From the NCBI RefSeq assembly GCF_055900595.2, contig NZ_CM148325.1: 64,000 nucleotides of DNA. The stretch is one strand, 5' to 3'. The notes below the pieces were generated by a model. It did not search any database. It was not told the origin of the DNA and saw only the letters and a program-made list of their open reading frames with translations. The first letter of the stretch is position 1, and every line of letters begins with the position of its first letter. Of this stretch, positions 51,823 to 52,977 are shown piece by piece. A program made the translations under genes and the position numbers.

Positions 51823-52064
51823 ATCCATACCTGCCAGAGAGTTCATAAATATCTCGCCAATATCATTTTTGAATCTATAGAGAGAAAAGTACCTTTGTCG
51901 AATGCTTAAAGAAAGTGCATTTACGTATCACTTTTATTTTTGCGAGGCGTTTTCCAGATATGATGTAACAGTTGCAATTATTAGAAGTTCAAGTAAAACA
52001 ACCTTGTATTAATACCAGAATAAGGGGATCTGGTTTTTTATATTCAAGAATAAAAAATTTTTTG

Positions 52065-52283
52065 TCATTCCTTATGCTCCTTACACTGATCATCGACACC
52101 CACTGTCTCCCCCTTTTGCCTGCCTCCCTTTGCTTTACGCACCGGGAATTGCTGACGTTCCAGATATTGCTCTACCGCTTCGCGTAAAATTGCAGATCGT
52201 GAAACCTTACGCCAGCCCCTAAGCTTGTTCAGCCGTTTAATTGCCTCTTCTGATAAATGAAGAAAAACCGTATTCATCACCAT
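52065..52283 (-). CDS. yiiE: Small ribbon-helix-helix (CopG/Arc-like) protein, YiiE/YiiF family (72 aa from internal ATG; start uncertain)
   Basis: MVMNTVFLHLSEEAIKRLNKLRGWRKVSRSAILREAVEQYLERQQFPVRKAKGG...; RHH pattern SxEAIKxL...SRSAILREAVEQYL. Confidence 0.7.
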   Translation of the reverse strand: MVMNTVFLHLSEEAIKRLNKLRGWRKVSRSAILREAVEQYLERQQFPVRKAKGGRQKGETVGVDDQCKEHKE

Positions 52284-52977
52284 TACCAATACCTTACATA
52301 TATTACTCATTAATGTATGTGCGAAAATTACGCCGAAAAATCATTTAAAAAAAGCGGATTTTTGCATGCTGTTTTGTTTTTGCGAGACGTTTTCCAGAAA
52401 TAATAAGAACGTTGCAGTTGTTTCATTTGTTAATCAATAATGGTTTGGTTATCGCCCAGGATGAGATATGGGTGCTATAAATATATTATATTCAGGGATA
52501 TTTATTTTTTGATTGGGTCTTCATTTGCATAATCTGAATGGTGTACCCGAAAAACGTCAGCATCCTAACAGCACCAGGATTTAAGGTGAAATTTAACATC
52601 CATCACAGACCGGTCAATGCTGCCGCCAACCGGTCTTTACTTGCTCGTCGTTATAATTTTGTGGGTAACAGTTCGGGAAACAAGGAATTCCTTCCGGAAC
52701 ACCCCGGTATCATCCGATAGCATTGACGTCAATCATCAGCGCGACGGTGAGTTTTTTTAATCGAATCATAGGATGGTAACGTTAAGCACGATTACGGGTC
52801 ATAGTAAAACTCCTGAGCAGGCGGCACTATGCCGCTTTCACAGGAGTTCTGAATGCTGGTGCTTTCTGTATGGCATAACCATGCCCCTCGCGGCTAAGTG
52901 CCTGCACACTTCTCTCTTTGTATGTCATTTTTGCAATGCATTGGCCGAATTCTGGTAATTCAAATGAGTTTTACTCT

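Follow-up and report, generated by a model that had tools for sequence, protein, structure and literature searches.

The element repeated upstream of yiiE and yiiF resembles a CRP-S site rather than a sigma-54 promoter

Two small ribbon-helix-helix (RHH) genes, yiiF and yiiE, stand in tandem on the minus strand of a 64,000-nucleotide stretch of contig NZ_CM148325.1 (RefSeq assembly GCF_055900595.2; this whole stretch is called the window here), and each is preceded by a copy of the same short block. What is this block? An earlier note on this DNA took the two copies for a duplicated regulatory cassette and suggested that it might be driven by sigma-54. Following the analyses described below, the duplicated cassette was upheld and the sigma-54 part was not. 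The repeated element is instead, in our judgement, probably a CRP-S site, predicted to be used by cAMP-CRP together with the competence co-activator Sxy (TfoX).

A duplicated cassette upstream of two paralogous genes

The gene yiiF (51604..51822, minus strand, from the open reading frame (ORF) list and the RefSeq annotation) encodes a VapB-type RHH antitoxin, and yiiE (52065..52283, minus strand) a paralogous RHH protein of the CopG/RHH_1 kind, as indicated by Pfam, by its identity to YiiF and by the annotation. A longer yiiF start at 51846, giving 80 amino acids, is the one homologous to the start in other genera and is often used by RefSeq. The names yiiF and yiiE are annotated in 5424 of the 5426 complete Escherichia coli genomes. 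The two proteins are 37% identical over 65 amino acids (E 1e-10), as expected from the paralogy that the earlier note had proposed. YiiE matches Pfam RHH_1 (1.2e-11); YiiF gave no Pfam match, and its Salmonella orthologue does match RHH_1. Because the orthologue overlaps a PIN-domain gene in other genera while the toxin is absent in E. coli, yiiF is an orphan antitoxin (VapB) and not a complete toxin-antitoxin module. In the ORF list of the window no PIN ORF follows yiiF or yiiE, and the gene pair of a VapBC module is therefore not found there.

The regions upstream of yiiE and yiiF align over about 130 nt, and the best-kept part of this alignment, TCTGGAAAACG[C/T]CTCGCAAAAA, is identical at 21 of 22 positions and preceded in both copies by TGCAAC. 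This part falls inside the two intervals (51936..51982 and 52376..52427) in which a shared block had been claimed. Its minus-strand cores are TGGAAAACGCCTCGCA at 51941-51956 and TGGAAAACGTCTCGCA at 52381-52396, exactly the strings that had been quoted for their GG and GC at sigma-54 spacing. The core lies 98-113 nt upstream of the yiiE ATG; before yiiF it lies at 119-134 nt counted from the short start and at 95-110 nt from the long one. Judged from these alignments, both genes and their upstream regions stem from one tandem duplication, after which the block was kept and the flanks diverged. The locus is thus soundly described as a duplicated regulatory cassette that stands before orphan antitoxin-like RHH genes, both the genes and the regions upstream of them being homologous.

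The pattern TGGAA-N6-TCGCA occurs at only these two places in the window, against a mean of 0.25 in shuffled sequences, 3 of 100 shuffles reaching 2 matches. As the two window copies are paralogues of each other, it is conservation that provides the real argument against chance.

The block matches the CRP-S motif

As cited by Sondberg et al. (2019), the CRP-S motif of Sinha et al. (2009) for E. coli is the asymmetric sequence T4G5C6G7A8-N6-T15T16C17C18A19; Sondberg et al. further report that Sxy dependence needs both unlike half-sites, whereas their orientation is irrelevant. The blocks read TGGAA-N6-TCGCA, the reverse complement of TGCGA-N6-TTCCA, and match this motif at all ten core positions, including C6/G17. 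This complete match was found in both window copies, in K-12 and in most orthologues. The predicted CRP-S sites, supported by the core match and by conservation, are ATC TGGAA AACGCC TCGCA AAA for yiiF (51938..51959, minus strand) and TTC TGGAA AACGTC TCGCA AAA for yiiE (52378..52399, minus strand). The single base that differs between the two window copies (T in yiiE, C in yiiF) falls inside the N6 spacer. K-12 carries both blocks, its yiiE spacer being AACGCC. A CRP-type symmetry, TTnTGnnA-N6-TnnCAnAA, is hidden in the block.

As controls we used K-12 promoters known to be regulated through CRP-S sites, namely those of sxy, comM, ppdD and sbmC. The experimentally used sxy site, tttCGGAAAGAGCCTCGCAaat, is identical at 13 of 16 positions to the block of Citrobacter and Klebsiella, ttcTGGAAAGCGGCTCGCAaaa, including GGAAAG and CTCGCAAA. 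The comM promoter has TGGAAtgatgcTCGCAaaa (TGGAA-tgatgc-TCGCAaaa), AACGCCTCGCAAA is common to ppdD and yiiF, and sbmC has TGCGA-N6-TCGCA. The sites of sxy (tfoX), comM and ppdD thus share with the blocks the asymmetric core CGGAA/TGGAA-N6-TCGCA and an AAA/AAT flank, and the sxy promoter further resembles the yiiE and yiiF blocks in its extended GGAAAG...CTCGCAAA and in having the TGCGA-type half nearest the gene. The comparison also has two differences. Dependence on Sxy and CRP is established at sxy, ppdD and others, whereas the yiiE and yiiF sites are predicted from sequence, and the genes downstream here encode antitoxin-like regulators in place of the DNA-uptake genes of the known examples.

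Conservation was assessed first in a protein-based scan of one genome per species, which gave 35 loci. In the enterobacterial loci a block of the form [C/A/G]TGGAAAG-NNN-CTCGCAAAA lies about 110-130 nt upstream of a single orthologue, and it is the best-conserved non-coding stretch there in Citrobacter, Salmonella diarizonae, Klebsiella, Kluyvera, Trabulsiella, Franconibacter, Lelliottia and Pseudocitrobacter. Position-wise conservation was then calculated from 40 distinct copies, whose loci had been fetched by protein similarity or accession and not via the DNA motif. Each position of the half-sites and of the flanking T and AAA carries 1.4-2.0 bits; spacer positions 8-10, three of the N6, carry only 0.6-1.1 bits. 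In more than ten enterobacterial genera the site stands before the orthologue at a constant distance, which is what a phylogenetic footprint in the sense of Cameron and Redfield looks like. From the motif match, the likeness to the sxy site and this footprint, we consider it probable that the repeated element is a CRP-S site for cAMP-CRP and Sxy, and not a sigma-54 promoter.

Perhaps the block is no more than an ordinary CRP site, independent of Sxy and serving plain catabolite control. Its 5-6-5 architecture and T/A-rich flanks are those of a CRP site, but both half-sites depart from TGTGA: TCGCA has the C6/G17 change, with a reported CRP affinity about 80-fold lower, and TGGAA is the worse of the two. 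With two such weak half-sites, an ordinary CRP site seems to us very unlikely. In line with this, constructs carrying a pair of weak half-sites were reported to be inactive and asymmetric sites to depend on Sxy, and the CRP-target papers of the searched literature make no mention of yiiE or yiiF.

A number of other identities for the block were tried and rejected. A small ORF running across it was discarded, as its start and stop codons are not conserved and its variation has no period of three. By-eye comparison with known motifs left the conserved positions unmatched for PurR, Cra, IclR/AllR, CpxR, marbox, IHF and Fis sites, and likewise for sigma-E/FecI-type -35/-10 elements, the Ter site and sigma-70 hexamers on either strand; the MetJ metbox, also compared by eye, fits the yiiE copy of the window only and not that of K-12. 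Rfam at a permissive threshold gave no match at the blocks. A simple sigma-70 consensus scan gave matches no commoner than in shuffled sequences and none at the blocks.

Comparison with sigma-54 promoters

The proposal that the block is a -24/-12 promoter at which sigma-54 would work with an enhancer-binding protein has some points in its favour. Compared with the consensus TGGCACG-N4-TTGCW, the blocks have GG and GC at the identical spacing, both dinucleotides are nearly invariant across genera, and the variable bases fall at the N4 of the consensus, amid two conserved parts. To weigh this likeness we built a position weight matrix from the 135 E. coli ChIP-seq sites of Bonocora et al. (2015), whose lowest leave-one-out score is 5.1 bits, with 9.3 at the 5th percentile and 13.9 as the median. 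The block 17-mers scored 4.8 bits (yiiF) and 7.1 bits (yiiE), below all or nearly all of these true sites, and the orthologous blocks of other genera scored 3.2-4.8 bits. As many as 214 17-mers in the window reach at least 4.8 bits. The top match in the window, CTGGCGCGCATTCTGCA at 49865-49881 on the plus strand (16.5 bits), lies inside fdoI about 2 kb away and is, bar one spacer base, the published K-12 intragenic sigma-54 ChIP-seq site IS47; because of this we take the matrix to work.

Occupancy data point the same way. Both yiiE and yiiF are absent from the K-12 sigma-54 ChIP-seq tables and supplements, which cover one growth condition, and from the RpoN genomic SELEX list, although K-12 has the same sequence and the method recovers the fdoI site. 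The blocks also differ from sigma-54 promoters in having A for C at two positions of the -24 region and C for T before the GC, and there is no gene for an enhancer-binding protein at the locus. Furthermore, sigma-54 has no need of A6, C11 or the AAA after GCA, positions that are conserved here and common to the sxy CRP-S site. The resemblance has a simple explanation: GG-N10-GC is contained in the CRP-S motif TGGAA-N6-TCGCA. Both blocks have this signature, but so does any site of that motif, and it is hence not diagnostic; the known CRP-S sites of sxy and comM are themselves weak sigma-54 pseudo-matches (4.1 and 8.9 bits). Sequence-only scans should therefore allow for this mimicry. A sigma-54 promoter at the block is, on this evidence, the least probable of the readings that we weighed, and sigma-54 dependence as put forward in the earlier note is not supported.

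Some other sequences in the window score well on the sigma-54 matrix. Two strong matches are CTGGCGCCATTAATGCA at 6827-6843 (minus strand, 16.2 bits) and CTGGCGCGGTGGTTGCT at 2007-2023 (minus strand, 14.4 bits). A third, TCGGCGTAATTTTCGCA at 52320-52336 (minus strand), reaches 12.7 bits, far above the blocks; it lies 37 nt before the yiiE ATG, overlaps the predicted -10 hexamer TAATTT described below and includes a TCGCA half-site. Its sequence is nearly the same in K-12, where there is no sigma-54 ChIP signal.

Promoter arrangement and a proposed mechanism

In the mechanism that we propose, the block would be a non-canonical 22-bp cAMP-CRP site that activates only with Sxy, its high-affinity TGCGA-type half-site being nearest the gene, as at the sxy promoter. 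CRP bound at about -70.5 would drive a distal sigma-70 promoter (P1) with a TAnnnT -10 hexamer in a Class-I-like manner, the mode of action reported for CRP-S promoters. Such a hexamer is present at a constant place. Its distance from the first T of the site is 66-67 nt in almost every vapB/yiiF copy, in all yiiE copies and in all three higB copies, and its inner bases vary (TATGTT, TAAATT, TATTTT, TAGATT and TATCTT, with TAATTT in yiiE and TACTTT in yiiF). In the higBA-like cassettes the sequence from site to hexamer is unrelated to that of vapB. The predicted P1 -10 elements of the window are TACTTT for yiiF (51886..51891, minus strand), starting 57.5 nt from the centre of the CRP-S site, and TAATTT for yiiE (52325..52330, minus strand), starting 58.5 nt from it. 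These distances compare well with those of TAnnnT in the comM and sxy promoters (58.5 and 59.5 nt), and place the site centre near -70.5 relative to the predicted P1 start.

A proximal promoter, P2, would lie downstream of P1, and in the ancestral vapBC it would start 4 nt before the start codon, within a palindrome. Kim et al. (2012) mapped the start of Klebsiella pneumoniae KPN_04185 ("yiiF") 4 nt before the start codon, downstream of TGATATACT. At this K. pneumoniae locus (L032 of our set) the centre of the CRP-S site is at -99.5 from the mapped start and at -70.5 from the predicted P1 start, which is 29 nt upstream of the mapped one. The palindrome GATATAC..GTATAT is conserved around the proximal start site. 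It is probably the antitoxin operator, through which the antitoxin would repress P2. In the window, the degenerate homologue of this promoter/operator, TGATATTGGCGAGATATTTATG (51844..51865, minus strand), runs into the long yiiF start codon and aligns with the conserved TGATATACTGGAGGTATATATG of other genera. For yiiE, a candidate proximal -10, TAATAT, stands at the P2-equivalent position (52300..52305, minus strand), 92 nt from the first T of TGGAA, compared with 95-96 nt for the TATACT of the vapB orthologues. A proximal promoter at the start codon beside a predicted distal CRP-S site is thus found in the K. pneumoniae orthologue, and the corresponding element of E. coli yiiF is degenerate.

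Because the mapped K. pneumoniae start lies at the proximal promoter, the block is not the promoter that works in ordinary culture. This is the only orthologue start that has been mapped, and its position at a different, proximal promoter also goes against the sigma-54 promoter suggested in the earlier note. Since sigma-54 promoters give no transcript unless activated, the lack of a start site would not by itself decide against one. The choice of promoter may also have a consequence for translation. At L032 2423-2473, equivalent to window 51844-51865, a conserved GGAGG upstream of the vapB start codon lies outside the mapped K. pneumoniae mRNA; a P1 transcript would include it, whereas the near-leaderless proximal transcript is without it, and promoter choice may therefore change translation of the antitoxin.

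This layout has precedents. In E. coli hicAB (Turnbull and Gerdes 2017) and Haemophilus influenzae toxTA, a distal CRP-S/Sxy promoter that is not repressed by the antitoxin precedes a proximal, antitoxin-repressed promoter near the start codon. Here too a predicted distal CRP-S site stands before a proximal promoter whose transcript lacks a normal leader, as in K. pneumoniae vapB. In hicAB and toxTA, however, the toxin gene comes first and the short transcript gives antitoxin only, whereas here the antitoxin gene comes first and E. coli has no toxin; repression of P2 by the antitoxin is suggested here by the palindrome.

By this mechanism cAMP-CRP and Sxy would switch on yiiE and yiiF, or vapBC and the higBA-like cassettes in other genera. 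Sites of the CRP-S type and toxin-antitoxin operons under Sxy control are already known kinds, and yiiE/yiiF would be a new member, unless they are in the list of Sinha et al. (2009). Little is understood of the E. coli Sxy regulon, for which natural conditions of induction are not known, and the toxin-antitoxin systems so far linked to it are few and scattered (hicAB, and toxTA in Haemophilus). The long retention of the predicted CRP-S site before vapBC, the higBA-like cassettes and both E. coli paralogues suggests that modules for growth arrest belong regularly to the competence regulon, and the toxin-antitoxin remnants yiiE and yiiF probably belong to this DNA-uptake regulon. YiiE and YiiF, uncharacterised regulators of K-12, thereby gain a testable place in it.

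Evidence against a CRP-S site, and another protein as the ligand

Several points weigh against identifying the block as a CRP-S site. The only mapped start is P2, in K. pneumoniae, with none at P1, and the supplements of the Cappable-seq, SMRT-Cappable-seq and ROSE papers and of Kim et al. (2012) list no E. coli start for either gene. Conditions that induce sxy or CRP-S genes in the laboratory are not known, which explains why the predicted P1 is missing from start-site maps. The distal half-site of CRP-S sites has been described as the less conserved half, and the perfect distal match found here is a match to the consensus and not to a requirement. Conservation reaches past the ten core positions (A6, G7, C11 and the AAA), and another protein with a similar site may account for this extra conservation. 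The match is also not universal, as C. koseri has TCGTA and the versions of Kosakonia and Cedecea are degenerate. The literature that we searched, which did not include the Sxy-induced list of Sinha et al. (2009), holds no link of yiiE or yiiF to CRP or Sxy. Finally, a K-12 RpoS-holoenzyme SELEX peak lies in the fabY-yiiE spacer, overproduction of SlyA induces K-12 yiiE 2.5-fold, and SlyA SELEX binding has been reported at the locus. The RpoS and SlyA signals are compatible with a normally silent locus.

The extra conservation leads to the most serious alternative, that the block is the site of some other regulator, perhaps a distal RHH antitoxin operator looping to the proximal one, and that its likeness to CRP-S sites is coincidental. 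Besides the conservation beyond the CRP core, this would fit the spacing to the proximal promoter, which is constant across genera despite sequence divergence, and a loose direct repeat in the block, GGAAAG and GCAAAAG, 12 nt apart. That the block, equally conserved, also precedes higBA-type cassettes, whose antitoxin is a helix-turn-helix (HTH) protein, makes an antitoxin operator unlikely. The likely VapB operator motifs, the GATATAC/GTATAT palindromes at the start site, are moreover unlike the block, and a chance match at ten of ten positions to a published motif, together with the 13 of 16 identities to the sxy site, would be improbable. We therefore think it unlikely that another protein is the true ligand, while giving this alternative more weight than an ordinary CRP site or a sigma-54 promoter.

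Related cassettes and their exchange

In S. diarizonae, Citrobacter, Klebsiella and others the orthologous gene encodes an 82-amino-acid RHH protein and overlaps a 126-amino-acid PIN-domain gene, forming a vapBC module; the VapBC pair is present, for example, in loci L009 and L024. Like the RHH VapB of such modules, of which it is the orthologue, YiiF has the typical C-terminal tail. What sets E. coli apart is that the PIN gene is gone, that repetitive extragenic palindrome (REP) repeats stand in its place, and that the antitoxin gene has been duplicated, one copy having diverged into yiiE. We propose that the ancestor was the vapB antitoxin gene of a vapBC module next to fdhE, and that in Escherichia this gene and its promoter region would have been tandemly duplicated to give yiiE and yiiF, the toxin being lost and the CRP-S site kept in both copies. 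The REP-type repeats in the slot of vapC, between yiiF and fdhE, were found at 51477..51559 with Rfam ES036 (45.8 bits) and naRNA4 (below threshold). A K-12 3' end antisense to yiiF, reported by Adams et al. (2021), lies in this REP region and belongs to the fdhE terminator region.

The block also precedes higBA-like cassettes, in which the antitoxin is an HTH protein and not an RHH protein, and some loci have two block-and-cassette units in a row: Pseudocitrobacter and K. spallanzanii have higBA followed by vapBC, and most E. coli have yiiE followed by yiiF. E. coli SCPM-O-B-8794 (locus L005) has a higBA-like pair followed by yiiE, without yiiF; its antitoxin is an HTH protein, and its toxin gave no match in Pfam or NCBIfam.

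Arrays of this kind raise the possibility that the block is an att-like recombination core for the insertion and loss of toxin-antitoxin cassettes. Some deletion end-points would agree with it, as the yiiF deletion of E. whittamii starts inside the 3' edge of the block and a deletion in locus L089 starts right after it. Other deletions, however, have their ends 18, 25 or 130 nt beyond the block on its right side. The block lacks an inverted repeat, and no recombinase gene is present at the locus, where its only neighbours are fabY, the esterase gene, fdhE and toxin-antitoxin genes. Its copies number a median of 2 per E. coli genome, all at this one chromosomal locus and none on genuine plasmids, a distribution on which a dispersed repeat or mobile-element site was also rejected. 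The homology of about 130 nt upstream of yiiE and yiiF is what ordinary tandem duplication would leave, and the persistence of the block in the metagenome set is partly ascertainment, that set having been selected for block presence. A recombination core thus seems very improbable. The "empty" loci that retain a block were set aside; they are deletion derivatives of vapBC with varied end-points, and, being chosen through the block, are little informative.

Returning to the CRP-S site, we also considered a broader view of the locus, in which the interval between fabY (or the esterase gene) and fdhE would be an array of interchangeable toxin-antitoxin cassettes (vapBC, higBA-like, yiiE), each with an Sxy/CRP-S promoter module of its own at a fixed distance, such that competence would switch on toxins, or in E. 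coli the two orphan regulators derived from antitoxins, as an inherent part of DNA uptake across Enterobacteriaceae. This is a tentative idea that we hold to be rather doubtful. The shared CRP-S module could itself provide the homology for cassette exchange.

The variability of the interval is apparent from several observations. The fabY-fdhE interval (51550-52650; also L004, L005, L024 and L027) is a variable toxin-antitoxin hot spot, and among 5424 E. coli genomes just 10 reach 99% identity to window 51550-52650, most being 90-95% identical. The window sequence at 52440-52760 is homologous to sequence downstream of the higBA-like cassette of L005. E. whittamii carries another higBA-like pair and an esterase remnant and is without yiiF.

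In the vapBC loci the left neighbour is usually a divergent alpha/beta-hydrolase gene, and the CRP-S site could serve this gene as well. Next to the divergent hydrolase gene, about 45-70 nt further upstream than the CRP-S site, lies a second conserved block, GTATGGATATACAGTTTTATAACCTGG (L009 2302-2330 and the corresponding places in Citrobacter and Klebsiella). It has a TGTAT..ATACA symmetry like that of the palindrome at the vapB start, and may be a second antitoxin operator or the esterase promoter.

Neighbouring features

The segment of the window around the two genes has the order fdoH-fdoI-fdhE on the plus strand, followed on the minus strand by yiiF, yiiE, an ORF of 617 amino acids and fabY (55207..56196). 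The 617-amino-acid ORF (52978-54831, minus strand), between yiiE and fabY, had no match in Pfam, NCBIfam or the PDB sequences. It contains a CX5R-like motif, CKSAKDRT, which we take to resemble that of the SopB/IpgD phosphoinositide phosphatases. The fabY-yiiE spacer of K-12 retains only about the first 21 codons of this ORF, a deletion remnant, and the closest genome has a transposase and a pseudogene in the same slot. Between this ORF and yiiE, the sequence at 52773-52958 has no Rfam match. It includes a spurious ORF (..TPEQAALCRFH..) as well as an inverted repeat, AACTCCTG...CAGGAGTT, and its homologue is L024 1910-2083, which lies downstream of a higBA-like cassette in Pseudocitrobacter.

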